64,000 bases of DNA from Marsupella aquatica (lineage: Eukaryota; Plantae; Marchantiophyta): NCBI GenBank assembly GCA_973895155.1, contig OZ316896.1, forward strand, positions 23,083,722-23,147,721, in the 5' to 3' direction. This document shows, one piece after another, positions 1 to 57,479 of the stretch. A program made the translations under genes and the position numbers. Positions within the stretch are counted from its first letter, which is position 1; each line of letters opens with the position of its first letter. Below the pieces are notes generated by a model, which ran no database searches, was not told the DNA's origin, and saw only the letters and a program-made list of their open reading frames with translations.

Positions 1-1
1 T

Positions 2-2282
2 TTGATCCAAAATCCAACAAATTTTAGCGCACCGTTTGTTCTTCATGTGGACCCAAGTGATTGCCCAACAGTCAAGGATTGGGACCAGTCTAAGTATATG
101 AACTGGAAGTATAGAGTGATTGGCGGGAATCATGGTGCACGGGCGAAGAATGAGTTGTTTGAACAATATGGGAAAAAGATCTTTGGAGAAGTTGAAGCAT
201 GGGTTTACGCTGGCCTCTCAAAACCTGAGTTTCGAAAATTGGGTTGGAAGCATAACATAGACCAGGAGTACAGGAAGACAATGACAAATACTGATAAACT
301 CAGGGCCTGTCATAATTTGTATTTGGAGTTCATGCAAACGAAGAAAAAAGATCTTCGATTTGCTTGTTGTGAGGAGTGTGGCCTTGTGTACAATCCGAAG
401 GATAGAGAGAGTGTTTCAAAATATGATCCAATGTTTCAAATTGCATTTCGGCACGGAGAAATATGGGATCTTACAGATACAATTTTGACAATGTGGTCAA
501 AGTTTGAGGTTCTTGGACAGGTGAAGGCAAAGTCTCCTGTAAAGCCTGCTCCTCCCAAGGGCAAAGGGAAATCAAGAGCAAGAGCAAAACCTGTATCCCG
601 AAAGTTGCACAAACTAGCAGGGGATATCAACTTCTTTCCATTCAGAGCACTTCAAGGTTTTGCAAATGAGGAGCAACAAAAGCGGTTATTGAGGAGGGTA
701 ATATCCAAAACTATAAGTCTTGATCAGATGCACCGTGAAGGAGAGCTCTTGAAAAAGCTCTTCAAGATAAGAAATTTGTTTCTCCAAATATCCGGTCAGC
801 CAGATTGGGCTACATGTTGATTCTTATTTCTTGAAGAAACTCAGGTTTCAGTTCTGACGACGTGGACGGAGAAGTTGAGCGACCAGGTAAAGGAGTTTTT
901 CATTACTTATATTGTTTTATATAGCTTGAAAGAGAGGAGCAATACCTTATCTGCTTCTCCATTGAATTATTTGTTATTTTCTTTCATTGTGGGTTCTAGA
1001 GTGGAACCCAATACGGATGTTATTTTTTTTAGATTGAAAAAGGAGATACTGGTATCTACTTCTCCATTGTGGGGTCCTGATTGAATCCCACTACCGGTAT
1101 CATTTTTTGGAGTTTGAAAGAGAGTAGTGATACTGGTATCTGCTTCTCCATTGACTTTTGTGAAGCCTTGCAGCTCAAAGCATACTCCAAAAGGAAAGTG
1201 ATACCTGTGGAGTAGACCAAGGTTCAGCCGGCAAAGCAGATCGAACTCCCGGCTAAAGACATTCCACATTCTTTCCAGAATTTTGTACTTGGAGCGATTG
1301 AGAAATACAACCGGCAACAGAACATCGCATCTGTTGAGATTGTTTCAACAGATTACACCTGGAAGAACGCTGACGGGGATTCTTTCCCTTATTCATTGCA
1401 TCTTGGAGATGTTCATCGTTTGGAGGGGTTCTTGAAACCCCAAAATTATACTTTCGCTGTTGCTGATGTACCATATGGTTTTAATGCCCCCGGGTCTGAG
1501 TTTGATGAAGTTCCTTTTTCAGAACAGGATGTCGTCGAGATGGTCACCTCTTTTTCCAAGGTGACAACAGCAAAGATTTGGAGATTCGTTGTGATGCATT
1601 CTCTTCAACAAGCTAACATGGTGATGCATGCACTTGAAAAAGTTTGCAACTGTGGAGTGGAAGCTGGAATATTGCAAAAGACAAATATTCATCAACATCC
1701 ATCTGGCCCAAGATTAGCTTGGGCCTTTGAGAATTGGACCATTGGGTACTACTCGGAGGAAGGAATTTGAAAAAAAGATATGTACAATTTTGAGCCAATT
1801 CAACGGATTTGAGGGTTAACATCATCAGTATCCCTTGTGTCACAACAAAAGCCCTAACACCACTGGGGTTTATTGTTAACCCTTATCAGAAGCCAGTTGG
1901 AGTGTCTGATTGGTTTGTGAATTATTTTAGCAACAAGGGAGATTGGGTGGCAGACTTGTGCTGCGGGACAGGGGCAACTTTGGTCGCGGCCCTTTTGAAT
2001 TCTCGCAACGGATGCACGGTGGATAAGAGCTCTACTCAAATTGAGTATGTCAAAAGTTGAATCATGACTTTGGACTCTGCTTGGAGTCTATTTGACAAAG
2101 CCTCAATTGTCGGAGATGGAGAAAGCTCTAAGGAGGTTCAACCTCCCATTGGCGGTGAGCTAGGTTTGATTGGAACGGATGCTTATGTAAACGAGTCGCC
2201 AAGGGAAGATGAAACTGAAAATGAAGAGCAGCTTCCGCAGACGCCCAACGATGAGGATCTTAATGAAATGTTGTTAGATTAG
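2..2282 (+). pseudogene. ParB-like N-terminal domain fused to a beta-class N6-adenine/N4-cytosine DNA methyltransferase; 5'-truncated by the window, disrupted
   Basis: ParB/Srx-like motif YRVIGGNHGARA...VEAWVYAGLS...LGWKHN. A phase-0 GT-AG intron at 887-1173 joins the frames. MTase motifs occur in beta order: LHLGDV, ADVPYG (DPPY-like motif IV), NPYQKP (HPTQKP-like), GDWVADLCCGTGAT (motif I), TVDKS. In-frame stops at 818, ~1213, 1768 and 2058, and a frameshift near 1790-1810. Confidence 0.75.
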
Positions 2283-3379
2283 CTAAATAAAACATTATGT
2301 AATATGCCACTCTTAGTTGTCATTATTAGAGCTACATGGGATTTGTACTTAGTAAATAGTAAATCTGATACCAGTATCTGGAATATCATTTGTAGCTTTA
2401 TATTAGTATGTACACTTTCTAGATGATAAATACTACTTGTGATACCAGTATTGGAAATCATATTCCAAACGGAGAAGGAATCAAATAGAACCCAAACTGC
2501 ACTTTGGATGTCTATTCTAAACTGATGTGGGACTGTTTTCTGTCGAGTGAAATAGTGCGACACTTTCTATGCAACTCAAACTTCAGTAGTTCATCAAGAA
2601 AATTCAGGGTGATTACTAAATGTGAACTTGTGTAAATTGTCTAGACAACTTCTGTGCAATGGATCATTATATCCAAAGCACAGAGGTTGTCAAGACAGTC
2701 TACATGAGTTATGTTTACATTTTTACAAGAGGGCAGTTGGTTTGTTAGTCAACAACCATCAAACTGATATGTGCAAGGCACAAAACAATAAAAAATACAA
2801 TGGAAACTATAAAATTGACGATGTTTGTACCTCAGATGATTTTAAACGTCTGAGGTAACTTCATCATCGATGCTATTCAAAGTATCATTATGCGATGCAA
2901 TACTATGAATATGACCCCATTTTGGGTTTGCTCTAAACAGCTCCGAAAGCATACCTTCTCGAGATTGCGAATGCAATATCCAGTCCATTAATATTCGTGA
3001 ACTCGATCTTGCATTCAATCTCATGAAGGCAAGCTTTCGGAACAAAGTAACCACATTTAGTGGCTTGAAGGTGGCTTGTTTGTCATTTGGTAAGTTATTG
3101 TTTCTATACACGGTTTATATGGCAATCGGTACACAACAAAGCGAGGAGCGATACTGGTATCGTATCTGGTTTTTGTAGACAATCATCTTTTTACATGTGT
3201 GAGAGATACTAATTTTGCTCGACGGAAATTTATTTTCACTATAAGGTATTGGTACACATTCGACACTAAAATACATTACCATTCAACAATATGTCCAAAA
3301 AAAAGCTGCTTCTTTATAATAAAATACTATTTACGATACCAATATCAAAAACCACATTTGTTACAACTACAAAATTTCT

Positions 3380-6300
3380 TCAAGCTGTACAATCATCTAG
3401 CATGGCTGCCTGAATAATTCTTCGTGTTTTTGCTGGCAAGGTGTTGTCTGCATTCAAAGAAAAATTGTAGGCATAAATTGCAGTTTCAGAAAGGCAGATC
3501 TCTCCATGCAGAGCTTTGTTTGATGATGCTTCCTTCTCAGGATAATATTTTCCTTCAATTGTTGACAACTCCTCAGAATCCATCGTGTACCATGTGATAC
3601 CAATATTGTCAGGCACTTCATCAACCTTGGTCAGTATTTTGGTAACCTTTGCCAGCCAAAAAGGCCTCCCATTTTGATCTGCATGGGCTGCAACACAAAT
3701 CATTGAATATTTGTTATTTACTTCAAGATCTTTAAAATCTCCTACCTCGGAAATCCTCTTCCGAGCTCCAGAGTACATGGCCTTCTCTGGACCTGCAATT
3801 TTCTCAATGAGATCAGGTTCAATTGTAGGCGCCCTCCCATCCATCACTAGGGTCTCTCGATGCTCGTTTGATTTTGGCCAGACCCAATCAAACATCCACT
3901 GTGCTGGCTTTAGGTGATTTTGGATGACATCTTCCTGTTTGTCAAAGAAATTTAGCCACCACAACTTATCCTTGTCGTCAAAATAATTGAATCCCTCCTC
4001 AATCGCTTTCCGATATTTCTCCAATGTTTCTCTTTCTACTTCACCAGTAGCATCTGCTCCATCCCCTCCATTGGTGCTTTTCAACGCCATTTGAGGTACG
4101 TGCAACCCAGAATGTGGTTGTTGGGATGTAATTCACAAACTCCACGGGATCACCCCAACTTGGGGTTGTTGAAATGTGTTTGGCATGAAACAAAACTTTT
4201 GGAATTCCATTTTCCCCAATCACACGTTTTATTCGGAATTGCTTTTGAAAACTGATCTGATGAAGTGGTTGCAAAACATGCCCGGTTGCCCCAGTCCTGT
4301 TGGGGGTTGATCTTTATCGCTCACACGAAAATCCACTGTTTCTTCTACAAATATTATCTCAGCTTTGGGATTGTACGAACCCTGTATAATGTCAACAAGA
4401 GTATCCACTCAGAAAGCTTTGCGTTTGTTCAGTTTTGAGGAAAATTTGCTGAACATTTGGTCTATCTGATCATGTGTGTGGCCAACCAGCAGAAATCCAA
4501 CCTTGATCTTCTGGAAAACCCCCAACTCTACAAGCATATTTAAGTAAGCAAACAAGAATTTATTCTTGTTCTCCCGAGCAGTGTTATCCAACTGTAAATA
4601 TAGCACCGGAGGTAGCACTCCCTCCCAAGTATTCAAAATATTCTGAATAACATGGATTGTAAGGTTAGAGTCATTGTGAATATTAGGGTAATTGAGATAT
4701 ACCTTGGCCTTCAACTGACCATTGAATATCAAACTGCCCACCACATGAACAGAAATAAAATATTTCTCATCCATGTTTTTTGGACATCTGGTGAAGTGCG
4801 GTAACTCCGTCTTCTTTTGGTCCATCCCATCAATACATATCCCCAAGTACTTTTCGGGGTGCTTGTAACATTTATTCCGGTGCTTTGCTAATTTCTCCCG
4901 CTTGACTCCTTGCGCTATACGATGCTTTTTCAACAACATAGCATACTTACCTGAGCAATATCAAATTGGTAACAAAGTTATTATAAAAAAATTATTGCAA
5001 CACTAGACTGCTGGTCTATTGGCATTTTGAGGTGTGTGGCAAAAACCATCTTCCAATGCCAAGACCTATAAATTTATAGGTTTTGGTATTCTAAGTTCAA
5101 TAACACATCCAATTCCAATTCATATGGATAAAACAAAAACTTACTTTTCTTTGATTCGAGCGTAGCTTTGTCACGGAGAGCTTTGAATTCTGTGCATGGA
5201 CCGCAAGTCGAAAAATGACTTCTTTTTGGAATACGAACTCAAGGAAAATGTTGCTTCCATGTCCGACAGAACCAAGAATATGTAACCCCTTGTTCTTGGC
5301 GCAACAGAGTTTCAGTTCGGAAGGCATCAAAGACTTCAGCTTTCGTCCAATTGTCAGGCAAATGAAAAATTTCCTTATTGGGAAGTCTTTCAACGTTACT
5401 CCTAAAAAAATCATTTAACCACTCTATTAAAGTAAGATGAGTGGAGGATTTTTTTCTACAAAATACATTGTTCTCGATACAAGAGAACATATTTTGGGTT
5501 ATCCTTTGAAGGCGATTATTTCCAATTGAAAATAATTTCTTAAAACCTTCTCGACAAAAAGAGTTTCCAGACACACTATACTCGCATGACCCACTCTGGT
5601 TATTCCTAACGCATCCTCTTAGAAGTATATTCTTCTCTCCACGGGTCAGGCCAAAATAATAGGTACGCTCTTTCGTTACTTCAAGTAAACCGAAAGTCCT
5701 CAAACACATATTGTCACAACATGGATACTTGAACACTTCTTTCATTTTTCTCCTCTTTAAATTCTAACTTGTAACAGTGTCTTTCTTGGCTATCCTATCC
5801 CTATGTTTCTTACTAGGGACTTTCAGTTTCACCCTATCCTGAAATTCCCTTGTTGAATCATCACTTCCACGGTCTTCACAAACCTCTTCGATGACGTCCT
5901 CATTGTCAGTGTTTGGCTCACTGAAAAGGTGGCTATAGCTACTCTGTGGCTCATTGCCTCCATCATCAGCTTCTAAACATTCTGACACAACTTGTGCAAT
6001 TACTTCGGACTCTCTATCGTGTACAGAGACATCTTCCAGACTTTCTTCATCACTGGAATCATCAGAAGATTCAAAACATACAATTGGAGTTCTGGGTTCT
6101 CTAAACTTGACTCGAACTATTGCATTACGAGAAATACCTACCCTAGGTAACCCATACCTTCTAACTAGAAATCTTGAAATAGTACCCGTCTGAACTGGCG
6201 TTGTCTGTGGACTATTCTCTTTAGGACCATTATCCTCATTTGGACAAGATTCAAAAAGTCTCTGCATACACTTTCCTCAAAGCATTCAAGATTGAGCGGA

Positions 6301-6817
6301 GATAGGACTTTGGAGTCCCATGAAAGCCACCCTATCAGTGGATGTCCGCCCCAACACTGGCAATGCTCAAGGCAATACGTGTATCACCTTTGGTATTCGC
6401 GACTCTGTTGGCTCTCGAAAAATCCTCCTTTGCACCTGAGAGCTAGTGCTCATTGAATTTCTCGGATCCAATCCTGACGCCGATACCCGTATCGTTCTTC
6501 GGATTCCTTCTCCATATCCAGGAATGGATGGTTTATAACAGCGTCGAGCTCCCAAACCTAGTATTGAAAGTTTCTCTATTCCTGGTCGAGGAACACTCAG
6601 TAGACGTCGTTTATTTGGCTTACTAAGTAGGGGAGACATAATAAGACCCTATCTCTGGCGTAGAACCACCGTCTGAGTCTGAACCGGAATCCAAGAGTTC
6701 GGGTATGACACGGTGGGACGGGGAAAGCTTCTTCAAGATATGAGAAGGTAGAAATCTTGTTCGAACATTAGGAGATGACTCCATAGAACTCTCTTGGGAA
6801 TCAGATGTATGAGACAT
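3380..6817 (-). pseudogene. DDD/E transposase, Sola-like / DUF7869-type, with one intron, frameshifts and stops
   Basis: Fragments 6623-6817, 6367-6639, 5764-6267, 5239-5745, 4409-4939 and 3380-4105 lie in order on one strand. Motifs: CCDNMC, FCREGFKKLFSIG, FSTCGPC, ICIDGMDQKK, LYLQLDNTARENKN, FLLVGHTHDQIDQMFS. GT-AG intron at 4951-5144 (minus). Confidence 0.8.
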
Positions 6818-6982
6818 GATGAATCAAAAACTCTATGGCAGTTCACATTCGTCTCTTGAACCTAGTGTTGCAAAGCTTGTCTCATGAACTTAGGGAAGAG
6901 AGATAGGGAGCAGAGAGATCTAGACAGCGAAAATGACTCCCGACCTCTAATGGAATGAAGTCCGATAACTTGAGCGTCCGCA

Positions 6983-7030
6983 CTTTTATAGTCACGGCGG
7001 CAGAAGATTTACGTGGCAATTTTTGATTGG
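6983..7030 (-). promoter_or_regulatory. Putative TATA and CCAAT boxes of the transposase gene
   Basis: TATAAAAG (6983-6990) and CCAATC (~7025-7030) on the minus strand, about 170-210 bp upstream of the ATG at 6817. Confidence 0.4.
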
Positions 7031-7550
7031 CTCCCGCTAAACGACAAAATAGTCCAGAGTCGGGCCTCCATAATTGGTCCCTGTATCTGAGTTTGGAATT
7101 GATGTTTGAATTTGAGCAACATTTAAATTAAGGTGGTCAAAAAGGTGAATGGCAATACCAGTATCGCTGTTTGCATTGGAGTCATTTAAATGTGATCCTG
7201 GAGGACGACAAATACCGGTATTGTTATGTCGTTTCTATCATAAAATGGGATACCGGTATGGGAATAGTTTAGTTTTCTTGATCTGTTTTCCTTGTAACCA
7301 AAAGTTCTATTTTCAAAATCTAACGAAAATGGAAATATTTATGGGTTCTATTGTCGCAATGAAAATGTTTGAAGTTAGTGAGGATATTGAAATTCACAAT
7401 TTGGGATGAAGCCAACATTCCTCGCGAAGTTGGGAACGATACGAATTAGTCGGTTTTGCAAAAATCATTGATTTTGCAAGAAATGTGTCGCGCACATTGT
7501 GAAAATTGGCGAAAATCGATCGAAATTGAAAACACCCTTCTCCATTAGGC

Positions 7551-7582
7551 GTCACACTTCTCGTTTGGTCCGTCACAGTGTT
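7551..7582. repeat. Right terminal inverted repeat of the MTase-carrying transposon
   Basis: Matches 11501-11532 directly at 29 of 32 positions, and matches 10236-10267 as a reverse complement. Confidence 0.8.
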
Positions 7583-7659
7583 GGTTCCAAATCCAGGCAA
7601 AGAAAATGTACCTTCATTTAGGGGAATTTCAACAAAAGTACAGGAGGATGCACGACAAC

Positions 7660-8348
7660 GGTTGTTGACTGGCAAGAACATGGTATGATTACACATTCCG
7701 TCGGTTCAAGATGTTCTTCGTTTAAAGTAATAGATTTGTTTAAAGTACGATTCATTTGTGTATAATGAGGTGGAGGTAGAACATAATGGTCTTAAGGTTT
7801 CATGATCTGCCCATTTTATATATATGTTCAGGAAAACAAGGTAGAAGTTCCGTGCGCGCAAGGAACTAGGAGCAGATTAAGTGGCAAATCACACGTTGCT
7901 GAAGACTCAAACATAGTAAGTACATATATAGTTCAGCCGCACTACGCAAACATATATAAAAATCCTGTTCAACATCATATGCTATGTAAGTTGTTTTCAG
8001 ATGTGAGGGGCCGTTGTTGTGCTTTTAAACATCCACCCTATCTTTCTGAAACTTTTGCAGGACTTTGACACACTCACTAAAGACGCCAAATTAGTGGTCT
8101 GCATGAGAGCCATGGGATTGATGAAGACATGCGAAGTGGATGCCAAGCTGCGCATGTTTGTTGCAGATACAAACAAGCGATCAAAGACTTCCCCCAAACC
8201 ATTCACCAAACATGCTCAAAAGACTGCGTCTGAGTTATTAGACATGGTGGCCAGGTGGGCTCTAGAGCAGAACAGAGTAATCATTAGAGATCTACCGGTT
8301 CTCAATGCGAAAGGCAAGCAAAGGATCTTCCCCAAGAATGCTGTATAG
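7660..8348 (+). pseudogene. Possible spliced 3' remnant of an unidentified (TE-associated?) gene
   Basis: Splice-like signals (GTTCAG| ~7831, |GTAAGT ~7916, TTTGCAG| ~8060) and an open 8019-8348 ORF with protein-like composition. No family recognised. Confidence 0.25.
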
Positions 8349-8689
8349 AATGTTGCTGAAGACTGAGGTAGTCAGATACCTAGAACATTGTCTGGTGAAG
8401 GGGCTTGGGGTTTATATATGTCTAGTTTTGTGACTCGTGCACGCGCTCCTAAATAATCAAACATTGTCACATCTGTATGTCTGTCAATTTGAATGAAGTA
8501 ACCCCAAGTATCCATGAATTTTTCCACGGATCCACCTCCCATGTACGCCTCCAATAACACTACATCCCCGGAATACCTTCAAAATACCGGCACACAAGAT
8601 CCACGGATGGCACACAGTGGACCCCTGGATGCCTCCAATCTGCGCACATCCGACAAATAACATCAGAATACCTCAGAAATACCCCCTCC

Positions 8690-9760
8690 CAAGTCAAAAT
8701 ACCCCAGCAATACCCCATCGCAATTAGGACTTTCACCATCCTCACGGGGGGTAGTTGGATGGTTGCGATGATGCACATCATCCTCCAATACATCCATGGA
8801 CGCCACATCATACACCTCCACGCCTGCAATTGGAGCACATCCGTCTGAATACACAAGCAATACCCTCACACGTAGGACTTTCACCATCCTCACGGGGGGA
8901 AATTGGATGGTTGCGATGCACATCATCCTCCAATACATCCACGGACACCACAGCCTACTGACACCTGTACGCCTTCAATTGGAGCGCATCCGTCACAATA
9001 CCATAGCAATACCCCCTCGCAAGTAGGACTTTCACCATTCCTGGGGGGGGGGGGGGGGAATTTGATGGTTGCGATGCACTTTTCCTCCAATACATCCACG
9101 GATGCCACAGCCTACACCTGCACGCCTTCAATTGGAGCACATCCGTCACAATACCCCAGCAATACCCCCTCGCAAGTAGGACTTTCACCATCCTTGCGGG
9201 GGGAACTTGGATGGTTGCGATGCACATCATCCTCCAATACATCCACGGACGCCACAGTCTACACCTGTACGCCTTCAATTGGAGCACATCCGTCACAATA
9301 CCCCAGCAATACACCCTCGCAAGTAGGACTTTCACCATCCTCGCGGGGGCAATTGGATGGTTGCGATGCACATCATCCTTCAATACATCCACGGATGCCA
9401 CAGCCTACACCTGCACGCCTTCAATTGGAGCACATCTGTCACAATACCTCAGCAATACCCAATTGCAAGTAGGACTTTCACCATCCTCGCGGGGGGAAAT
9501 TGGATGGTTGCGATGCACATCATCCTCCAATACATCCACGGACCCCATAGCCTACACCTGTACACCTTCAATTGGAGCACATCCGTCATAATACCTTAGC
9601 AATACCCCCTCGCAAGTAGGACTTTCACCATCCTCGCAGGGGGAAATTGGATGGTTGCGATGCACATCATCCTCCAATACATCCACGGACGCCACAGCCT
9701 ACACCTGCACGCCTGCAATTGGAGCCATCCGTCAGAATAGCCCAACAATACCCCCTCACA
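8690..9760. repeat. Tandem repeat (minisatellite), ~147-bp unit, ~7 copies
   Basis: Marker GTAGGACTTTCACCATCC recurs at ~8724, 8872, 9023, 9176, 9323, 9469 and 9616. Confidence 0.9.
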
Positions 9761-10063
9761 AGTGGGTGGTTGTACGTAGCTAAATTCCCCGGAGACACGT
9801 AGGGGAGAGGTCAAAATACTCAGAGTGTGATATACCCTGGTACCTGTGGGCTTCAGTAGGTAATTTGGGTGCATTACCCCAAGATGGCCGGAATACCTAC
9901 TTCTTTGTTATCAAACAATGAATTACCGGGGGAATGTTGGGAAATACCCTGCACCCAAACCATGCATATCCTCCTTGTGAGCTCTAGCTTGAGTTGCAGC
10001 GACGTCGAATCAAAGGGTGGTGACAATGAGGGCGGATGGAGTGAAGGAGATGACTGCGACTAT

Positions 10064-10120
10064 GGGATTGAACCGGGGATCTCTCGGTTCCAGGCTTATC
10101 GTCTAACCAACCAAAGTTGC
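10064..10120 (-). repeat. tRNA-derived (SINE-head-like) sequence
   Basis: Minus strand reads TGGTTGGTTAGACG...CCCGGTTCAATCCC, with A-box- and B-box-like motifs. No clean cloverleaf. Confidence 0.45.
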
Positions 10121-10235
10121 TTAATTTAGTCTTTCTTTTCTGCAGCTCAAGGCTTCATCTTCCGAGAGAGAGAGTACTCAACTCAGCTTAGTTAGTGTAA
10201 AGGCCCTTAGATATTCTACTCTTAGAGACAACACC

Positions 10236-11532
10236 AACAAAGTGATGAACCAAACGAGAAGTATGACCACCAAATGAGAAGTGTGTTTTTGATTTCCCAA
10301 AAAATGGCAAAAAATGACAAAAATTAATATCAAAAATGCTATTTTCAGGATGAATCCAGAATTTCATCCAACATTGGATTTCAAGTTGAGATATTGTCGA
10401 CCCAAAAACAAACAATTGTCACAATCCAGAATTTCGAGACACTTCACTTGTAAAAAGGGCAAAAACCCAAAACCTGGAAAACAGTGCTTTTCACGTCATC
10501 CCTTGACTTTGTTTTTGACCATAGTTGGATAAGGCGTATCCAAAGCTGATAAGGTGTATCCCCACGGCCTCTTATTAAACCAAATATATTTCATGGAGCA
10601 GATGGGGTTGATTCAAGGGTAGAATCCCAAAAACTCATCATTCATCCAAAAATGTGCTACAAAATAAAGTTCATATTCTTGAAAAGTATCTTTACAAAGA
10701 GCCCAAGATCATGAGCAGACCAAAACATGAACGGAAGCACAGGAATGAAGCTAACTCTAAGCTTCACGATACATATCCACGAGCCTTGCTTGCTGATCTT
10801 TCTCAAGATTGTGCCAGTCTTCTTGAAATCAACTTAGTTCAGACCTTGAAAATAAACCCAAAGAAATCGATTGGTGAAAGATTTGGGGTTTCCATCCTAA
10901 AAAACCAACATGAACATTCTGAAGGGGTTCTCCTTCGGGAATGTTTGTCAGCATTTCATTTACTTCCTCAAACTGGCTTCTTTCTAGTCTAAACATACCC
11001 CAGACTCGTGTACAAATTACGAGCTGGTTCCATTTCTTTGAGAATGATGCATGGACCAAGCCACACCATTGTTTTTAATTGCTTCAATCTTTCCTCAGCT
11101 GAGATCTTGGAGGAATCAAATTCATCCTCTATGCAACAAACTTTCAAAATGGGCCACATGAAAGTTTCAACGATCTCATCAGAAAGTCCATCCAAAAGCA
11201 ATCTGGATTCCCTTCCCAAATTTCATCGCAGTTGGTTAAAAGTTACCATTGAAAAGAATCATATGGGAATATTCTTAAAAGGTAAATCGATCTCAAAACT
11301 TTTACTACGTTTAATTTTTGTTTTTTTAGAATTCCGCGGTGGGATCCGAAATGGGATACGCTGTATCACTGGTTCGTATTCAAGTCAATTTTCCCATTTT
11401 TTAAAATCTAAAAACTAGTTTCTTGAGGGAATACCAATTCCGCATCCAGGACCTTTTTGCCTTAGACATTTTTTCCGTCGCGGGAAAAATGAGAAGTGTG
11501 GTCACACTTCACGTTTGGTCTGTCACTGTGTT
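10236..11532. mobile_element. Non-autonomous ~1.3-kb derivative of the Sola-like element, 4-bp TSD CACC
   Basis: TIRs AACAAAGTGATGAACCAAACGAGAAGTATGAC (10236-10267) and GTCACACTTCACGTTTGGTCTGTCACTGTGTT (11501-11532). CACC at 10232-10235 and 11533-11536. The empty site is visible in the paralogous repeat at ~25130-25150. Confidence 0.8.
10829..11219 (-). pseudogene. F-box-like gene fragment inside the 1.3-kb element
   Basis: LLLDGLSDEIVETFMWPIL followed, after a frameshift, by SFSKKWNQLV..W. This resembles the plant F-box consensus LPGLPDEI...WP.L....VSK.W..L. Confidence 0.4.
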
Positions 11533-11542
11533 CACCTATCTT

Positions 11543-11744
11543 CCCTAGGCCCTCACTCTATGTAAAAGAAGTGGACGCCCTGCGATCGGGCACTTTTCTT
11601 GTTTACCCCTTGTTATTTCCATTTTACTATTAAAAGTTCCCTTATTACCGGTAATAATTATAATTATTAGTTCAAAATGAATAAAAATTACCCTTCGAGC
11701 GTTTGCACGTCCTCCACGTATTAGTTAAGACTGAGGGCCCAGGG
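11543..11744. mobile_element. 202-bp MITE with 8-bp TSD (hAT/P-type signature)
   Basis: TIRs CCCTAGGCCCTCACTC / GACTGAGGGCCCAGGG (14 of 16 match). TSD CCTATCTT at 11535-11542 and 11745-11752. Confidence 0.85.
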
Positions 11745-11980
11745 CCTATCTTGCAATCTTTGCGACAGGTATTAAGTGCTCCAAGCCCAAAGACTCTAGG
11801 GGGTATTTGTTAAATTCTAGATTATATCATTCATGTAAGAATGAGAGGTACGTAGAGGACACAATGCTAGCCCTCACTGGTGAGTATATATTCCTTAATA
11901 GTACTCTCTTTAGCCCTTGCTGATGTGTCATTGTTTTCTATAAAAAGAATGGACCCTTTTTACTCAAGGCCTTGTATTCA

Positions 11981-12607
11981 TTATAGCTACATCATTCTAG
12001 TGCTTCATTATTTTAACTTATTGAAAAATATATCAAACCTAAGCTATACTATCATTTCTAAATTTATTAAAATACAATTTAAAAAAAAAAATGAAAATAT
12101 AAAGTAACCATAAAACTTGCAATTATGAAGAGCATGTGAATTGAAGCCCATCGAAAAATCTCAAACTCTGTGCCCAGGACAGGGAGGCGCCGGCCCAGAG
12201 GAGAGGTTGTTGGTCATGGAAATGTCAGAATGATTTCTACGTTAGATCTAATTAAGGTACAGCCTTGTCTCAATACATCTTTGTGGTGCAGTGGTGGAGG
12301 GTTCCAGTTTGAACCTTGACGTCACGAGTTCAAATCAATAATAGTTTTTCCTTTCCCTCCAATTAATGGCAGAGAAAAGGTGACAAAGATCTCAATTAAT
12401 TAAACCTAAAGGGGCTCAATCAATTTTTCTACATTGAATAATAAATGGAACATATATGGGGGTCCAAGTAATTCACACATAGAAAAAAATACAAGGAAGC
12501 CAGCCATGGGAGAACCAAATAAAAATAAAAATAATCACCAAAACAAATTAGAGTTGTGAGACTGAAACAGTGATGTACCATAAGGGGAAGTCCCAAAAAA
12601 TCTGTAG
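11981..12607. mobile_element. ~630-bp insertion with possible TCA TSD, containing a tRNA-like segment
   Basis: Absent from the paralogous copy at ~24915-24925. TCA lies at both borders (11978-11980 and 12608-12610). Internal GTGGTGCAGTGGT...GAGTTCAAATC at ~12283-12337 has A/B-box-like motifs. Confidence 0.55.
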
Positions 12608-16373: not shown

Positions 16374-17165
16374 GAGACTCAAATGTGTGAAATGTGTGAA
16401 ACGTGTCCATCTTCGTCGGTGAAAGCTGTAGGAAGGAAATATGTAGCTCCCTGGCTATTGTTAGAAGACATCCAGAGTCCCAATAAGTTCGTGAAGGACC
16501 ATGGGTTATCTCGAAAATTGAAGGACCGTCTCTTCTCTGTGTTGACTGCACGCCTTGTCAAACGGACCTGGCCCCGGCCCGAATCCACTGGATTCCATGC
16601 CAGGACCTTGTAGAAACCATCCCACTATTAAAGGCTCAGACCTCTGCTGAGAACCATATCGGTCTGCCTTGATCACCTACACAATCGTGATAATGCAGCT
16701 TTCATTCTTGAGCTGCTCACTACACTGGATGCATGCAGACGACTAGCTGGTGTACCTTGGTTTTGATATTTCAGCGTGTTTAGTTCTTGAGTAATGTGGC
16801 TTCTGATCGAACGATTTGTGTGATCGATCAATCACAACAAAAATCGTCAGGCTGCGTGGTTTCTCTTTCTAGTCTGCCTTTCAGGACACAACAACGAGCC
16901 GTGAATAGTTAGTTCGTTCGTGATTGCGAAGCGAATCTGAAGGGAAGAGGCTGAGGTCAGGCTTCCTCCATTGAGCAACAGTCACATATTGGTGCTTTGA
17001 GGAATTCCTTCCCCAAGAAAGCATCCCTTTAAGCTCAACGAGTTTTTCACTGCAGATTCATCCGGCTCGACGTAGCAGCTGTGAGTTACTTAGGAGCCTA
17101 TCGAGAGGAGCACAACCTCCAGTAAACCTTCGCCCAGGGTGGTTCGCCCAGGGTGGAGCGGGGCA

Positions 17166-19490
17166 ATGGAGGTCCCCTTGCTGTGGATATTGGTGTGGTG
17201 TACGATCCCCTTAGCTTTCATGTTCCCGGCAGTTGTGCACGGCGACCCAATTAAGGTAACCTTCGATCACTGCCGGAATTCAACCTCCTTGCTTGATCCA
17301 CTGCGCGGCAATTCCTCAGAATCCATCCCGTGCTGTCCCGTCATGCCAACTAGGCCGATCGTCAACGGGCCGCCTCCTCTATTGACGGAACACATCAGAG
17401 TTAGACAAGCTGCGCAATGCACGGATGCAGCTTACGCTGCAAAGCTCAACAAGGCGTATGCGTTGATGCGGGCGCTGCCAGAAGATGACCCACGTTCCTT
17501 CTCTCAGCAATGGCAGCTTCACTGCTCTTACTGCGGGGGTGCATTCTTGACCGTTAACAGCAGTGGATCTCCTCAGGGAATCGACATCCACTGGAGCTGG
17601 CTATTCTATCCATGGCACAGGTACGTCAAATCATTACCTGCACCACTACACCAATGTCATCGATTCCAGACCAGTCTAGTCCTTGAAACATTCAGGAGCT
17701 GTTACAAAAAGTAATGTTTCAATTGAAGGATAAATTAGACAGGTTCACAGATGTTTGCGGGTACGTAGTCGCTACAATGATTTTTCCTTACAGGGTTAAT
17801 TACGATTCTCAAGGAAGTTTGAATTCGATCTCGATCACTGAGAAGCTGATAAGTGTTGCAACTAATGAATATATGCAGGTGGTACTTGTACTTCCACGAG
17901 AGGATCCTGCAGTCGCTCCTGGGAGACCCCGACTTCAGCCTCACTTACTGGAACTGGGATGCTCCCTACAGTGTAGGAGATGGGTCTTCCAAGAATGGAG
18001 CTTGCCTGAAACAGGGACATGATTTCCCAGCCTTCTACGCCGACAATTCCTCCGCCGCATACGATGTCAATCGATCTGCGAATGCGAAGGGATATGGCCG
18101 TCTGCACTTCCCCGATGTCAGTTACACCCCTGTCACACCTGCAATAACACAGGTTCTCTTCAACGCATCTGGAGAAGACATCATTGAAAGTAATCTGAAC
18201 ATATTGTACCAAGCATTGGTGAGCGGCGGAACATCGAAAGAAACCTTCATGGGTCGGCCATATCGCGCAGGAAACGCGGCAGGTGTGTATATAAACCGAT
18301 CGATTTGACTGAGAAAACTCTCCACATAAGCTACTTTAAGCCAGCCATAAAGAAAACAAGACTTTCTACCATCCCTAGGTAGCGTTAGTTACAAACAATT
18401 TGACTCTTTCCTAAAGAGCTTACTCGAATCATATCTTGAGCGCTTGCAATCCCAACGATGTCGGCTAACTCTTGTTGGTTTTGAATTCACAGGCACTGGA
18501 GGCCCAAATGGAGGTGCTGGAACGCTAGAAAATGGCGCTCACTCTGGTGTTCATTCCTGGGTCGGAACAGACCCGCCAGGCAACGACATGGGCCAGCTTT
18601 CACGCTCAAGCCGTGACCCTGCCTTCTTCGCTCATCATATCAACCTCGATCGTATGTGGCAGGTACGTCAGTTAATTAGCTCGAGATAATTGATTATCGA
18701 ATACAGATCGATGTCATTAATTTCTATGGTCATGGACTGATTAAATTTTGCAGAATTATGTTGATTGTTCAGCTCGGGAAAGCTGATATATTTCCGTGGT
18801 TGGCTGAAACAGGTATGGAAAGATATCGGGCCAGTACTAGGTCAGACTCATGAGGACTACTCGGACCCTGACTTTCTGAATGCTGAGTTTCTGTTCTACG
18901 ATGAAAACAAGGATCTGAGAAGAGTGAAGGTAGGAGACTCGTTAGACTCGAAAAAGTTGGGATATGTTTATCAAGGCGCTAATGATGCACCATGGGTCTT
19001 CTTCAACACTACCAAGTGTAATAAGCTTAGCTACAACGAACTTATTGCCCAAGCCGAAAGCTTGCCAGTGCCAAGCAAAGACTCGAGAGGATACTACCAC
19101 CTGAACGGCGGTAAGACATTCACTATGGTGGTGGAAAGACCAGAGAATCCACACGGCCTTGAAGAGTTCCTCACCATTGATGGAATCAAACTCGACAGAA
19201 CTCGGAACACAGGGTTTGACGTGTTTGTGGATTGGGTGAACCCGACCGAGCATTCAGTGCCAACCAAATGCGCTGAATTCTCTGGGAGATTCACCAACTT
19301 GGTTCAGAGCCGATCTGCTACTGAAGGGAAACCGGATTTGGACTGGAAGCAAAGTATTTCCAGAACACTAGATGATATTGAAGCTCCAGCAGGCCCTTCA
19401 AAGGTCGTCATCACTCTAGTGCCTATGTATCGAAAGGAAGACCCAGATGAGACCTTGATCAAATTCAAATTCATCACGATTGACATTTGA
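17166..19490 (+). CDS. PPO: Polyphenol oxidase (catechol oxidase/tyrosinase family), 4 exons, N-terminal signal peptide
   Basis: Exons 17166-17620, 17879-18282, 18493-18662 and 18813-19490, all with GT-AG borders. CuA HCSYC...IHWSWLFYPWHR; YWNWD; CuB HSGVH...RDPAFFAHHINLDRMW; DWL-like DFLNAEFLFYDENK; KFDV-like TGFDVFV. Confidence 0.95.
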
Positions 19491-20474: not shown

Positions 20475-23400
20475 TCATCGTCGATTCCCGTTTTTTAAAA
20501 CCTCGGGAAATGTTTCACTTAATTCTATGACACTCCATTGGTTCTCGAAATGGAGGAGTTCATGCACTGCATTCTCAAGTTCCACTGTCTCTCCCAAGAG
20601 GGACTTGAGGCTGAAAGTGAGAGCACTGAAGGAGAGCATTGCCGAGTTACTGAGCAATGATCCAGCCGGATTTTCCCTCTTCGCTGCAATGAATCCAGAA
20701 ACTACCTCCTCATAGCGGCCCTCAAAGGCCTCCATAGTTGACTGCATACTCAGAGGAGTTCCATCAATAGCTCGCTGCGTGCACTGCAGGAGCAAGAGAG
20801 GGTGGACATGACCAGCCAATTCGCGAAGATCGCCCATGGATCGCGAACCTTGAGTTGGTCCCAGCCCCTTTTCTTCGTCATCCACCCACGTCCATTTCTT
20901 GCTCAAGTGAACAATGTTGTGTTTCTTGACCTGTAATACCCGTTGGAGAAGATCTAAGGATGACAAAACTTCGTCTTCCAAAGCAACTAAAGATGTTTGA
21001 AGAGGCCCCACTAACATCTCGATCTGCTCCTTCAAGCAGTCTTCAGTTGCTGCGTGTAATGAACAAACCATGAAGAACAAGAGATCGAGCATGCGTCCTT
21101 GTATGTGGTTAAGCTTGGAATAGATCTCCATAGGGAATGGAACATTCCACAAATCTGGTTCCATGATTGCCTCACTTTGTAGATCAGCTTGCTCGGCAAA
21201 GCTGGCCCTTAGCTCTTGCTCAAGCTTTTTGATCCCTTGCACTACCATCCGACGATGTTTGGGACAATAGTTCCCTGTGTATGCAGCAATCACACTCGCA
21301 ACACAGTCTCTCAAACCCGTCAAACTCGAAACAAGATTCTCTCTACATAGGGATTTTGCTCTGTTTGGCCACACGACTATCTCCACAATGACCAAACTCA
21401 AGACCCCAATGAAATTTTCTACTATACGAACTAAGGCAAATTCTTGAATGCTATTGACCTTAACACGGGCTGGACCTAACATAATTATGGCTGCGGTCAG
21501 CCCAGCAATTACTCCAGCAGGTCCAAATATCCTGCAGAAACGGAGATAGCTTAGGAGTGTGACCCATGGAATCAAAGAAATAAGGATCAGGTAAGGATGA
21601 TTATGCGTGATCAATATCGCCAAATAGCCATAGATAGCCCCGAGAGCTGTTCCTTGCAGACGAAGGCTCCCCATCCGAAACGAACCCCCTTGATTCTCTT
21701 GAACGATAAACCCGATCGAGATATTGGCCCAGAATGCATACTTCGTGTTGTATTTAATCCCACCAACAGCTGCCATGGACATGGCCAGCGATATCTTGAA
21801 AGCCCGAACAAACTGGACACGATCCAACTTCAAGCCATGATCTCTCAGCCATTTCAGGCACGTCTCCCACCTCGTCATTCTGGGAAGCTGATATTCGCAG
21901 CCACAGCTAGTTGGTGCACCCAATTCGTTGCCACCCGACTTACGTGATTCGCCACCTTTGTTAGATGGTGATCGTTCCAGATTGTTGCTTGTCAGGCTCT
22001 GCTCGAGGGTGCGAATTCGATGACCGGAAGTGGCGATTTGGTGCATCCTATTGGCTATCTTACCAGAATCAACCATGTTCATTGTCTCGATGAAGAACAT
22101 TCTCAAGTTGAATAGAAAGAAGTATGTAGGCACCATAGTACGGAGCAACTGCTTAATGTTTTCGTTTGCAGAATAGCCGTGGGGATTGGGACTAGCAAGC
22201 AGCTCATCCAAAGATTGGTCCTCTGCTTTATCTTTGTAGTAGGTCTCCACCCTGGCCAACATGATAACGTCCTCCAGTAACCCAAATTCTGCTTTAGCCT
22301 CCTCCAAGCGCTCCTGCTTCTCAAGCAAAACGGCCTCTGACTTAGATAGTTTGGTGGTCAGCTCAAGAATGGCCTTACTTTTATCACCAATTCTCTTAAC
22401 GGGGCCCTTAAGAATGGAACTCATTATTCCAGGAGTCAGTAAAATGGTGCCAGACTGCAATGCCAAAGTCATCCCCAAGAGATGTAATCGAAGGCCATTT
22501 AGCCCCTTCACCATACGTTTGAAGGTTAGAATCAATCCAAAACCTCTTAATTCCCAGATAGCATGCACCTGATTCATTACGTGCCGCACATGATCAGAAA
22601 GATATCCTTTGTCACCGTACGAGCACTCTTGATGAGAATAGAGTCACTATCGGCTACGATTTGCGAAGGGTTTACCCCAAAACAGTACCAGCTGGTCACG
22701 CATTCGAAAATTCTCTCTAGCTCTCTGTTGATCGAGGCAGCATACTAAGGAAATCATGCAAAAGCGACAGAGGGCCTCTGCAGACACTCAAAAGCAAGGA
22801 GTTCTAATAGCATGTGCTCATACAAATTAATCGTCTTCACCATCCCCCACGAAGTAAGTTGCAGGAAAAAGGGCTGACAAGGTAAGGCTGAGAAAGGAAA
22901 ACACTGAAAGGGGATTTCTGCCCACCTGCCTACAATTCAGCTCGCTTATGTCGTCACATGCTAATTTATAAAGCAACTTAGCATGTAGGAAAATAGATGA
23001 AAATATGCACGCCTCCCTCGTACAGAATGCCTCCACTAAACTCTGAAATAGTTCAGAGCTTCCTCTGATTGCTGACCTTGCACACATGCGAGCCTCCCAG
23101 CATGCGAGTCCAGGCACCGGTACGAGAACCGCCAGAATCGCACAAGAGACTCCGATCAAACTGGTAGCCATCAGGCGGACTACGAAGAAGAGGCTACGAC
23201 CGTTCTGCCCCGTGTGAGCCGTGATGAAAATGATTCCAATTTGCCCCAACGCCACTTTTCTGGTCATCTCACTCTTATTGTTTGGGTATGCCACAACAAA
23301 ACTGGCCACAAAAATGCAGACGATAGCCGGAGCAAGCGACAGCTTGGTACCGAGCACTAACAGCACTGCAACTCCAATCGTCATTGCTTGAGCCATTCCG

Positions 23401-23714
23401 ATCAAAACACCGACAACGTTCCCAAAAATTGCCCCAATACTCGACTCGACTATGTTCAAGCAAATCACTAGCGAGAAGAAGGGAATTGCTATCCATTCAG
23501 TTACGGGGGATCCATATTCTAGCATAAGACCAAGCAACAAGCAGGCCCATCCGCTCCTGGCGGCCACTCCCAACCGCCGGAAAAATATTTTGCCATATAC
23601 AGATTGTAAACCCATGACCAACGCCTTGAACTTGGCCAGCACTCCCCCGGAATCTGAAATTGGTGCCGGAGAACTCTTGTCTCTGCTGGCTGCTGGATTT
23701 TCAGACGACCCCAT
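20475..23714 (-). CDS. ALMT-related / FUSC-like (aromatic acid exporter family) membrane transporter, 2 exons
   Basis: Exon 1 is 23714-22926, intron 22925-22569 (GT-AG), exon 2 is 22568-20475. Two multi-TM blocks, with motifs AFKISLAMS, GGSFRMGSLRLQGTALGAIYG, FALVRIVENFIG, WPNRA and EPDLWNVPFP. Confidence 0.85.
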
Positions 23715-24659
23715 CCTCAATGCTACTCTTTGTTCAGCTCCTCTCACCCACAGTTTGCTGAGAGCTCTCGTTCAAAAATCATTCAAAGCAGAATCATCAA
23801 GAAAGATTAATAACTCAGCCATGCGCATCAGAACAATCTCCTAGCAAGAGTTGGATCAGCTCAGTCATTCGCGCACCTCTCAGTGCTCCAGACTGTCTTC
23901 TCATTTTACTTATATATAAAGGGCCAACAGGGAGAGTACATTGTCTGGCTTCTCCAGTGACCCGTTGATTGGAGAAATTACTCTAAATTGAGACTCTTCG
24001 AGAGCAAAAAACTCCAGTACAGTGAGATCTTTAGATGAAAAGTGAGATGCTCTCCAACCTCATTCCATGTACAACCGAAAAGCAATTCGCTTGATAGACC
24101 TCATTCCTAGAGACAGACACGTCACGCCGCCCCGAGTTTCCTCTGACAATCTCGGTCTACAGTGAGCTTCTAAAAGTGACAATTGAGACTCGAACTGATG
24201 GGCCACCTCTAGCTGCTCTTCAAGCAGCCGTGACGATTATTTTGCGAGGATGGCTGTTCGATTATTCACCGGCCATCCTCATTCGATTCGGACCAACAGT
24301 AACCGTCTCATACAGCTCCAGGATGGTCGGGCTCGCATTCACATCAGTGTCTCTGATGAATGATTAACTCGTGACGTTCATAGCTGCTTCAGTCGCGTCA
24401 TGGATGTCGGCTACACTAGTGTGTGCTCAAAAAGCGTTACTGATTTGTCACTCAGCTTCATCAAAAGCCAACAAAAGCCAACAACAGGCAATTCACTGCC
24501 ATTGCTTTCGTGGATCTCCGTGAGAATCGGAAACATTTGGTCTGCTGTCGATTGATGATTAGTGGGTTTCGTCCGCTCTTGTCTGACTATATTGGCATCC
24601 AATCACGCTTGATGCCTTGATGATTTCGACTTAGGTGGGGAGAATGACACCCATAGCCT

Positions 24660-26063: not shown

Positions 26064-27524
26064 GAGGCGGGTGCAAAAAGCGAAGTTACATATAGTATAC
26101 AGCATTCATCCCGGAACATGCTTGATATTTTGTCTTGTAGTGAAATGTAAATAGATAAAATATAAGAGAGTAGAACTAGAATACATATTAAGTGTGATTG
26201 TGATCAAATCTACAACTATAATAAGGGATCACTACTTTTTTTGTCCTCCATCTCAATACAAAGAAGCTCATGGGCGGGAGAGATCCTCAGCCATTGGATT
26301 TGATTAGCTATTTTCCCAGACCATGATGGAAGAAATGTGTACCCCTAGCACATATGTGCTTCCTGCTCTCGTTCCCGCTGCCCCATAAATGCTGCTCTCG
26401 TTCCCGCTGCCCCATAAATGCCCTACCCGACTCACTATAGACTAGCTTTCCTTGCAGAGTGCAATGCACTGGCATAGGGCTCGTACTATAAATCAAGCAC
26501 ATACTGAGTGACCAATGAAAAGTACACTCAAAGTGCTATGACACAAAGTCGCTAGGATGTGTGCACTTATTGAATCAATGTGCTTTATTAATGACTCAAC
26601 TCAATAATGACCATAAACTTAGGAACGAAACCATGAGGACGGGTGAACTTAAGACATGTGTTCACCTTATTTAGAATCATTTCTCTTTCTCATGAGAAGA
26701 ATTAAAAACTTTGTTCAAGTGGTAGAATTAAATCATTGGTTAATTTAAGAGATAACAAAGATTAAAAATTAAGGGGGATGCCAAAATGAGTTCAAAATTT
26801 CTTTAGAATACCAAAACTTAATGGGGTCCAGAAATAAATTAAAAATCCATATGATACAAACAATGCCCCCTTATTAATGCACATTCATTCAAATAAAATA
26901 CATGACACAGAAAATATGAATAAGACAACATGTGAAAGGTGGATTCACCATATATACACCTTCAAAAGGTTCATATCCATGGTGCTTTGGGTGTAAAGTG
27001 AGACAGAGTGTTACACAATCCATGGGGATGGGCAAACACACCCCTCGTCCATGAGCGCTAGATTTTCTGAAGATAAGAGGTCCAATAAAGGGAAAAAAAC
27101 AATGGAAAAATGACACGAATACCAAAGAGGCAAAAAGCCAGAGAGTCCCCCACAAAGCACCAAATGGGTGGACAAGATCTTGAAGGCACCAGAGCCAAGA
27201 AGGGGAGAAAAACAATGGGGTAATTCACACCAGACCAAAGCACCATAGAGTCCTGGCCCAGGCTTGTCTAATTCAATCACAAGCTTTGTCAGTTCCTCAA
27301 ACCTTGCTTACCTTGCTTCTTCTCGTAATCTCGTTTCTTTCTCGTGAAAGCGTGTCTGGTTTACGAAAAAGGTGCCGATTTAGCGTAAAGCTTTTTAGCA
27401 AGTGTGGATTTTGAGCTTCTCGTACTCCTGCAGCACCGTAGTCGCAAATTCGCAGTCGAGCCCGCTATCGACGTTCCAATTTGTGTCGAGCGATTCACAA
27501 ACAGTGACCAGGACGGAGATCGCG

Positions 27525-28307
27525 ATGGCCACATCGCGAGGGCATGGCGAAGAAGCGGATCCGGAACCGCTCACAAAGCAAGAGATTGTGGATCTGCGCG
27601 CGAAGCTGATCCCTGAGTTGCAGCAGGAAGAGTGGTACACGATATTGACGGCATGTACTGCATCCGCGCACGCCGGCGCAGAGGCAGTGCCTCTGATTTA
27701 CGAGATCGCCTCGGAAGAGGTCAGTGCCCTTGCGGGAAAAGAGGCTGATGAAATGGCGTTGAGGATACAGAGGCGGATTAAGGAAAGTCTGCTCAAGGGC
27801 TCGGTCCTCTTTGGCATCCCTGGCGCGCTCCACTCGGTCTTCGCTCTCCTATCGCGCACCCGCATGGAAGCAGCGCAGCACCCCACCCGCAACGACTCGG
27901 GGTTCTTCCTGCGACGAGGGCAAACCCTCGAAGGTGCCCGATCCCGTGGTTTGGGCCAGCTGCGAAAAGTCTATCGGCACAACTTGGATCCAATCCTAGA
28001 CGAAATGGTGCGTGACGACATGGAAGATCTGCGAACCCTCACCTTCGAATTCAACTACGGGTGGAATTTGAGCGAGTGCGGTGTTCTCGATTTCAAGAGC
28101 ACGGAATTGGTCATACTCGCGGCGCTGATTCCGCAGAATGCGAGGGCAGAGACTCTGTGGCACCTTAGAGGTTGCAGGAGGGCGGGTTCGTCCGACGATT
28201 GTATACGGAGCGTGAGGGATGTTTGTGTTGAAATTGCACAGAGGCTTGGGTGTCGGACCTCCCAGGTACCAAACCTCGAAGATGTGAAGGAAGATTCGAA
28301 CGAGTAA
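27525..28307 (+). CDS. Intronless AhpD/carboxymuconolactone decarboxylase-like protein (fungal-type), ~260 aa
   Basis: Uninterrupted GC-rich ORF. Duplicated CMD-like helical motifs RIKESLLKGSVLFGIPGAL and LDFKSTELVILAALIPQN..ETLWHLRGCRRAG. Confidence 0.7.
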   Translation: MATSRGHGEEADPEPLTKQEIVDLRAKLIPELQQEEWYTILTACTASAHAGAEAVPLIYEIASEEVSALAGKEADEMALRIQRRIKESLLKGSVLFGIPGALHSVFALLSRTRMEAAQHPTRNDSGFFLRRGQTLEGARSRGLGQLRKVYRHNLDPILDEMVRDDMEDLRTLTFEFNYGWNLSECGVLDFKSTELVILAALIPQNARAETLWHLRGCRRAGSSDDCIRSVRDVCVEIAQRLGCRTSQVPNLEDVKEDSNE

Positions 28308-56305: not shown

Positions 56306-57479
56306 GTTGTTTATCGTTCATTCATAGATATCTCGATTACGACGGGGACGACATAGTTACAACATTGCACTAGAAGTAGTCACGAAAACACAAATGTCTA
56401 ATGCAAATACTCAAGAAATTGAAAGCACATTATCTGTCATTGTGTCCTACAAACTGACATTCACACTTTAACTGTAACTATTGAAGAGAAACAAATGAAG
56501 TTAGACACATATGGGACCGGACCAGCCTATCGTTGATCCCATGATTGTCATCATGAGAGAAATTAGGCGCAAGAAGGATGAAGAGATGACAAACGTGTAG
56601 GGGTTTCGTGCAGATGGTCCATTTCCTCAAGAGACACCAATCGAAACCACAACCCTTGGCACCAAATCTGCTCCAAAAACAAAGCACACGGATCAACCTC
56701 TCTCTATTGTAACGAAAAGTCATACCTGTTCGTGTGTCATAACTCATTGCAAGTCATGTGAATAATAACGTGTTCTTTCCCATTTCCCTTAGCAGATCAA
56801 TATGACCGGTAGTTTCCAGAATTGGCTTAATCTAGTTAATGGGAAACAATATGTACCCGCATCTAATTGTTCTCATAACACACTGAAAGGGTTTAGTGAC
56901 CCTAAACCCTAAACTGGCCAAAACCCCAAATAAAGAGAAATGCAACTCATTTTACAACACGAGTAATATTCGACTGAAAGGAGTATTGTTGTGAACAGTC
57001 CTGCCCCCAAGAGTAACACCTATTAATTATTGTTGTGATCCTGATCTAATGCAATTCTGACCTCACATTCATGTGACAATATTAGCCGACATTGTCTCAA
57101 CATCTCTGAGTTCCTATTTGAGTTTATGATATATTTGCATGATTTCCAATAATATCTAGCGTTCCACTATCTTCTGGGGAGAGAAGAGCAAGAGCCTAGA
57201 AGTGAATGAAATGAACCTTTTGCTCGTACTAGTCTGCACATTAATTATGGATCCTGACTCGTTAGGGTGTCTTCTTTCTAGCAAATCCTTTACTGACAGT
57301 TTCACTGGCCTCCAAAAGCGACATGCTTTTCTAGAGCAGACAAACGACATAATTTGAAACAAATTAAGATGATCTCAAAATCTGCCCTCTTCAATTTAAT
57401 CAGTTTGGTTCCCAATTTTGTTGTGCAGCTCTCTTCCTTTCAATTGACATTTTTCAGCTCTAAGTGACACTTTGTTGGC

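Follow-up and report, generated by a model that had tools for sequence, protein, structure and literature searches.

Transposons that carry DNA methyltransferases (MTases) are an already known kind of mobile element. Retrotransposons of Symbiodinium and Klebsormidium encode DNA methyltransferases (DNMTs), giving a transposon-borne DNA MTase in streptophytes for which self-methylation has been proposed (PMC5890265), and adenine-MTase folds accompany eukaryotic mobile elements in the DIRS elements and in the Dam genes near transposons of Trichomonas (PMC4738411). The proven acquisitions of amino-MTases by multicellular eukaryotes number two, both of them host genes, and land plants have few N6A-MTases according to PMC4738411. 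MpDN4MT1 (bioRxiv 2021.02.12.428880) and the bdelloid N4CMT (PMC8885841) combine a prokaryotic-type beta-class amino-MTase fold with introns in a eukaryotic gene. Here we describe a locus of the liverwort Marsupella aquatica, contained in a stretch of 64,000 nucleotides of contig OZ316896.1 (positions 23,083,722 to 23,147,721; hereafter the window), whose first 7582 nucleotides belong to a decayed two-gene Sola-like plant transposon with a cargo gene predicted to encode a ParB fold joined to an amino-MTase. No published DNA transposon with a ParB-amino-MTase gene was found in a search of mainly open literature, the original Sola paper and Repbase Reports lying outside it.

The cargo gene and its methyltransferase

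The window holds the right-hand part of this cut-and-paste transposon (1-7582), the left end lying before base 1, with two convergent broken genes: the cargo gene on the plus strand and a transposase gene on the minus strand. The cargo gene begins before base 1 with a ParB-like exon (1-886, GGNH at 122, premature stop at 818), followed by a phase 0 GT-AG intron (887-1173) that contains two copies of a palindrome considered below, and by a beta-class amino-MTase exon (1174-2282) with DVPY at 1465, NPYQKP at 1878, DLCCGTG at 1953 and an acidic tail. All four motifs had been picked out in an initial annotation made from the letters alone, and their positions are borne out. The MTase exon is broken by stops at 1213, 1768 and 2058, and its frame shifts between 1791 and 1812. 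A metagenome scan yielded seven related loci (L001-L007) from 56 candidates; the intron occupies the same position in all five that cover it (L001-L005), and a database protein, P0034, is continuous across the exon junction without an intron.

The MTase exon has 14 relatives at 59-70% identity and matches the N6_N4_Mtase domain (PF01555; window 1794-2057, E 8e-8) above the curated cut-off. Its motif order is that of the beta class, with catalytic motif IV (DVPY) ahead of the S-adenosylmethionine (SAM) motif I (DLCCGTG). A structural model of the MTase relative P0003 reached a mean predicted local distance difference test score (pLDDT) of 51.5, the core blocks scoring higher. Foldseek searches with this model returned CcrM, TTHA0409, M.PvuII, M.RsrI, N4CMT and M.MboIIA, M.BceJIV is a further fold match, and in VIA-align the top 11 chains were all DNA amino-MTases (best Z 12.4, root-mean-square deviation (rmsd) 4.8, 196 residues aligned), the next unrelated chain having a Z of 8.1; the N4C enzymes PvuII and N4CMT scored no more than about 2 Z below it. 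The amino-MTase fold that the initial annotation required is recovered by Foldseek and VIA-align, alongside the PF01555 profile match. Of 105 aligned rows, 97 have D as the first residue of motif IV and three have S; the SPPY catalytic motif of enzymes making N4-methylcytosine (4mC) occurs in one of the 105 and is not matched by the close family, which has D-I/V-P-Y. Across the whole family the D..Y pair of motif IV, PxQKP and the SAM motif D-x-x-x-G-x-G are retained.

The ParB part

The ParB-like exon of the window is 53% identical to the intact exon of L005, and its assignment to a ParB N-domain with a helical domain rests on the predicted fold of that relative. The L005 model (pLDDT 76) gave seven Foldseek matches at E<=1e-3, every one of them ParB or Noc, and VIA-align placed PadC, pNOB8 ParB, KorB and sulfiredoxin first (PadC: Z 9.8, rmsd 3.1, 100 aligned). 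The modelled ParB fold includes the helical region, for which there is also a weak HTH_ParB match (E 9e-4). Pfam searches of the window recovered two of the three domains that had been expected, N6_N4_Mtase and DUF7869, but did not detect ParBc in the ParB piece. In Atlas, the nearest clusters to the exon are fungal DUF3723 clusters (0.95), which we treat as no more than a lead; window 2-817, used as a query for longer proteins, had no hits. The canonical ParB arginine patch reads GERRxRA or GxxRxxA. An intact patch is absent here: GGNHGARA stands in all 17 covering rows of 18 aligned, and distant relatives have a GGGHxREA-type sequence.

In L002 and L005 a further exon lies upstream of those present in the window, which puts the length of the element at no less than about 9.8 kb; relatives extend beyond the point that corresponds to base 1 by 2.1-2.3 kb or more. 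The 180-residue domain of this first exon (L002 643-1200 and L005 393-950) is 38% identical between the two loci and has no match in Pfam, NCBIfam or PDB sequences.

The transposase and the termini

The catalytic exon of the transposase (3380-4950, minus strand) bears IDGMD at 4834, LDN at 4591 and GHTHDQID at 4483, with a stop at 4411, and matches DUF7869 (PF25273; window 4412-4960, minus strand, E 5e-43). It is 55% identical to the open frame of L006, with frame breaks near 4231-4135. The motifs IDGMD, QLDN and GHTHDQID, common to the window and L006, are those of a DDD-type transposase; which of their aspartates are catalytic is judged from the motif patterns of such enzymes. An inferred phase 1 GT-AG intron (4951-5144, minus strand), present also in L006, separates this exon from an upstream, stop-interrupted coding region (5145-6838, minus strand) whose 5' limit is uncertain; 5424-5137 is 71% identical to L006 and has a further stop at 5241, and the part upstream of it is assigned from reading frames. 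The nearest transposase clusters are DUF7869 clusters of streptophytes and molluscs. There was no match to PDB sequences, and DUF7869 was named in no paper found in the (mainly open) literature searched. According to PMC5751038, Sola had no Pfam domain.

The spacer between the two convergent genes contains a hairpin with 26-base arms (2942-3041).

The right terminal inverted repeat (TIR; 7551-7582, minus strand) is followed by GGTT (7583-7586), the predicted target duplication. Its terminal 21-mer (7562-7582) has a second match at 11512-11532 with 2 mismatches, where 0.00 are expected by chance, and an inverted copy at 10236 with 4 mismatches. These two matches bound a 1297-bp non-autonomous element (10236-11532) with the same TIRs, without coding remnant or exact palindrome. 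CACC flanks it on both sides, which marks these ends as true TIRs with a 4-bp duplication, and the end at 7582 has 27/32 and 29/32 bases in common with them. The right end proposed in the initial annotation is therefore a real TIR, common to the two elements. The CACC duplication departs from the TTAA-specific one of the Kolobok superfamily (PMC9587614). A left TIR sought in the seven loci gave a best match of 14/21 bases, no inward-facing copy occurs in 1-7560 (besides 10236, the best plus-strand match has 7 mismatches), and viral and prokaryotic contigs gave no match to the TIR pattern.

Linkage, selection and the wider family

The transposase is convergent with the MTase in four of the seven metagenome loci (L001, L003, L005, L006), 320-470 bp apart; in L005 only the last 31 transposase residues are present, at the contig end. 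In L002, L004 and the distant L007 the sequence stops 300-510 bp beyond the MTase, and no transposase is seen in what remains. The two genes are hence linked elsewhere too, in line with the original proposal of a TIR transposon that carries a linked, spliced ParB and beta-class amino-MTase gene. All five complete MTase exons are open, and these exons are under purifying selection: synonymous sites are saturated in nine of the ten pairwise comparisons, where nonsynonymous divergence (dN) is 0.15-0.32, and L003 against L004 gives a dN of 0.066 and a synonymous divergence (dS) of 0.88. Retention of an MTase gene by selection inside a transposon across so long a divergence argues that the gene serves the element. 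MTase and transposase identities rank alike among the window, L001, L003 and L006, a comparison of four taxa only. L007 (1-1986) is a more distant member in a short context, with extra introns in the MTase region and no palindromes seen.

A profile search matched 1315 proteins at E<=1e-3 and 154 at 1e-10. Among 20 whose organisms were looked up, six came from Chara braunii, one from Riccia sorocarpa and one from Ginkgo biloba, and 15 of 20 family hits of >=500 residues also matched the ParB-exon profile. The fusion is accordingly no one-off cargo of this copy: it is part of a large family of eukaryotic proteins, with members in Chara, Riccia and Ginkgo. One Chara braunii gene model, P0054, holds two tandem ParB-MTase units, which suggests adjacent copies. 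The supplement of PMC4738411, checked at all 14 Selaginella/Physcomitrella places and at 2 of 390 ParB places, has none of the 14 in the family.

The initial annotation had called the cargo phage-like. This holds for the architecture but not for the sequence: phage MTases are 23-32% identical (20 best of 268 records), in the MTase part only, and PHROG returned nothing for the ParB exon. No relative was confirmed in viral contigs, which were scanned with the MTase alignment, the ParB alignment, P0092 and the transposase, or in prokaryotic genomes, for which the MTase alignment served as query; these scans require near-exact short peptides and are sensitive to close relatives only. A family tree of 52 rows covering both motifs, midpoint-rooted and built without a prokaryotic outgroup or DN4MT1, has weak deep support and points to no donor. 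A prokaryotic ancestry of the folds is plausible.

Dispersed palindromes

Ten GATAC-NN-GTATC palindromes, absent from the initial annotation, lie between 1045 and 7260 (starting at 1045, 1129, 2367, 2441, 3150, 3335, 6374, 6482, 7154 and 7249). With one mismatch allowed, the window has 11 matches to the pattern against 1.09 expected window-wide, and 10 of the 11 fall inside the element. L001-L004 and L006 have GA(G/T)AC-NN-GT(A/C)TC, L005 has CCGAT-N6-ATCGG and L007 has none. Exact copies number 56 over the window element and L001-L006; 55 fall in 8.5 kb of non-coding DNA and one in 21 kb of assigned exons, that exon being uncertain. The sites are spread over the region 5' of the cargo gene, the introns of that gene, the intergenic spacer, the transposase intron of L006, the 5' region of the transposase and the vicinity of the right end. 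One palindrome family extends over both genes and so ties them to one element. The non-autonomous element at 10236-11532 moved and duplicated CACC without an exact palindrome; cutting therefore does not require the palindromes, and this suggests a sequence-specific reader distinct from the end-cutting activity. We regard the palindromes as candidate parS-like sites, which the ParB part may read.

State of the copy

The copy is dead, as had been claimed, with stops and frame breaks in both the cargo gene and the transposase. Six stops could be aligned across the two genes (818, 1213, 1768, 2058, 4411 and 5241), five of them TGA facing an arginine of open relatives. Such mostly CGA-to-TGA changes are what deamination of methylated CG should leave behind, as would be seen if host methylation of CG sites were the source of the inactivating changes. 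The observed/expected CpG ratio, which does not discriminate, is 0.61 in the element, 0.81-0.86 in close relatives and 0.59-0.77 in other regions of the window. When contigs of four runs were compared over 1-12000, one ran leftward from 7586 into unrelated sequence, resembling an empty site, and in three runs the contigs over the 4411 stop do not match the window there. In run X3 the summed contig depth is similar over both genes, a depth sum that is no copy number. Among the six sequencing runs listed as matches, none is of RNA.

Possible functions of the cargo gene

We favour, at a probability of about 0.58, a reading in which the element carries its own reader and writer, the ParB part recognising the palindromes and the MTase marking nearby element DNA, with N6-methyladenine (6mA) more likely than 4mC. 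In analogy to bacterial ParB at parS, the helical domain of the ParB part would bind the dispersed palindromes, and the bound protein would bring the MTase to the promoters, introns and ends of the element, whose DNA it would methylate, probably at adenine. The resulting mark may favour expression or transposition, or may distinguish copies of the element from other DNA, whilst the DDD transposase would cut at the TIRs and mobilise short non-autonomous elements too. That diverged relatives retain the same pair with open frames makes it likely that the element writes an unusual methyl mark on itself. Several observations weigh against this. The left TIR was not seen, the left end lying outside the window and outside all seven loci, and those loci come from one metagenome dataset. 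The MTase model has a low mean pLDDT (51.5), motif IV in the close family is D-I/V-P-Y and not DPPY, and the N6_N4 domain has repeatedly switched between 6mA and 4mC (PMC8885841). The patch GNHGARA lacks the arginines of GERRxRA, so that the protein may no longer clamp with cytidine triphosphate (CTP); the palindromes could just as well be sites of the transposase; and a copy decayed by CG deamination implies that any protection from host silencing was incomplete.

A more elaborate proposal, that the reader loads at the palindromes in the manner of ParB/parS and the MTase then writes 6mA over the element, giving a transposon-made mark in early-branching plants and making the fusion family of charophytes, liverworts and Ginkgo an unrecognised source of amino-methylation, is one that we advance tentatively and regard as doubtful in its full form. 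We think it unlikely that the cargo gene is instead a transposition accessory, binding the element and acting in transpososome assembly or targeting as accessory proteins do in other two-gene DNA transposons, with an MTase fold used for DNA binding or base flipping and palindromes that are transposase sites. The non-canonical D-I/V-P-Y motif would fit such a role, as would the palindromes in the transposase intron and subterminal region, and precedents exist in the accessory enzymes of several Kolobok lineages (PMC9587614) and in the DIRS-borne adenine MTases, thought to be inactive (PMC4738411); against it stand the family-wide retention of the motif IV D..Y pair, PxQKP and the SAM motif and the transposition of the non-autonomous element without an exact palindrome.

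Less likely again is an enzyme that acts in trans or on another substrate, be it by making 4mC, on host DNA in general (in sperm, for instance, like MpDN4MT1) or on element RNA. Specificity cannot be read from the domain (PMC8885841), eukaryotic amino-MTases have often shifted to RNA (PMC4738411) and the structural scores of PvuII and N4CMT lie close to the best, but the aspartate that opens motif IV in 97 of 105 rows, against serine in three, differs from the TSPPY of MpDN4MT1 (bioRxiv 2021.02.12.428880), and the fused ParB DNA-binding fold together with palindromes restricted to the element points to DNA in cis. It seems very improbable that the MTase gene lies outside the mobile unit, as a neighbour or as a host gene captured once, the TIR at 7582 then belonging to a transposase-only element or a small insertion. 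The unseen left TIR and the three loci without a transposase in the short stretch available would allow this, as would a jump in read depth at 7201-7600, which arises because other elements share that end; the recurrence of the convergent pair in four loci saturated at synonymous sites, the single palindrome family across both genes to 7260 and the lack of an inward-facing TIR copy in 1-7560 all argue for one element.

If the favoured reading of a self-marking element is true, the family would provide plant genomes with a concrete, testable origin for 6mA or 4mC, its target sites being predicted, and would be a new weapon in the conflict between transposons and hosts; intact relatives are available for assay.

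Surroundings of the element

Bacterial contamination as the source of the locus was rejected given the conserved spliceosomal introns and the plant genes inside the window. These include a polyphenol oxidase gene found as several pieces and probably intron-containing (17094-19487, plus strand), and a FUSC/ALMT-type transporter gene (20478-23771, minus strand). A tandem array of ~150-bp units, roughly 87% alike, lies at 8693-9766, and a Helitron Rep-helicase region with several long frames matching PF14214 and PF05970 at 39800-44800 (plus strand). A 302-residue frame (27399-28304, plus strand) matches carboxymuconolactone decarboxylase weakly (E 4e-4, below the cut-off), and a 394-residue frame (55136-56317, minus strand) has a linker histone H1 domain (PF00538, E 5e-7) followed by long arginine runs and resembles a protamine-like sperm chromatin protein.

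Comparison with known systems

In its DDD transposase, the short TIR at its right end, the 4-bp duplication of its TIR family, length of ~10 kb and occurrence in early-branching land plants the element resembles the Sola superfamily (PMC10741241), to which it is likened by description and not by reference proteins, and it differs from it by the additional convergent, spliced ParB-MTase gene and the dispersed palindromes. The phage MTases joined to ParB-family domains at terminase loci (PMC4738411) and bacterial ParB/parS (PDB) offer the nearest parallels to the fusion, the latter pairing a ParB N-domain and helical domain with short palindromic sites, here candidate ones; set against them are the 23-32% MTase identity, the lack of a ParB phage match, the degenerate arginine patch and the spliced structure of a plant gene. 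MpDN4MT1 and N4CMT are host genes with an SPPY-type motif that make 4mC, whereas the present gene has D-x-P-Y, a ParB part and a transposon setting; the identity to N4CMT in the structural alignment is 16%, and DN4MT1 is set apart by description. The DIRS and Trichomonas MTases belong to groups 2 and 3, not to the circularly permuted group 1, and have no ParB fusion, the DIRS enzymes being likely inactive (PMC4738411). Lastly, the elements of PMC5890265 are retrotransposons with C5-cytosine DNMTs, whilst the present one is a cut-and-paste element whose beta-class amino-MTase is fused to ParB. Among methyltransferase-carrying transposons, what appears to be new here is a DNA transposon with a ParB-amino-MTase gene.

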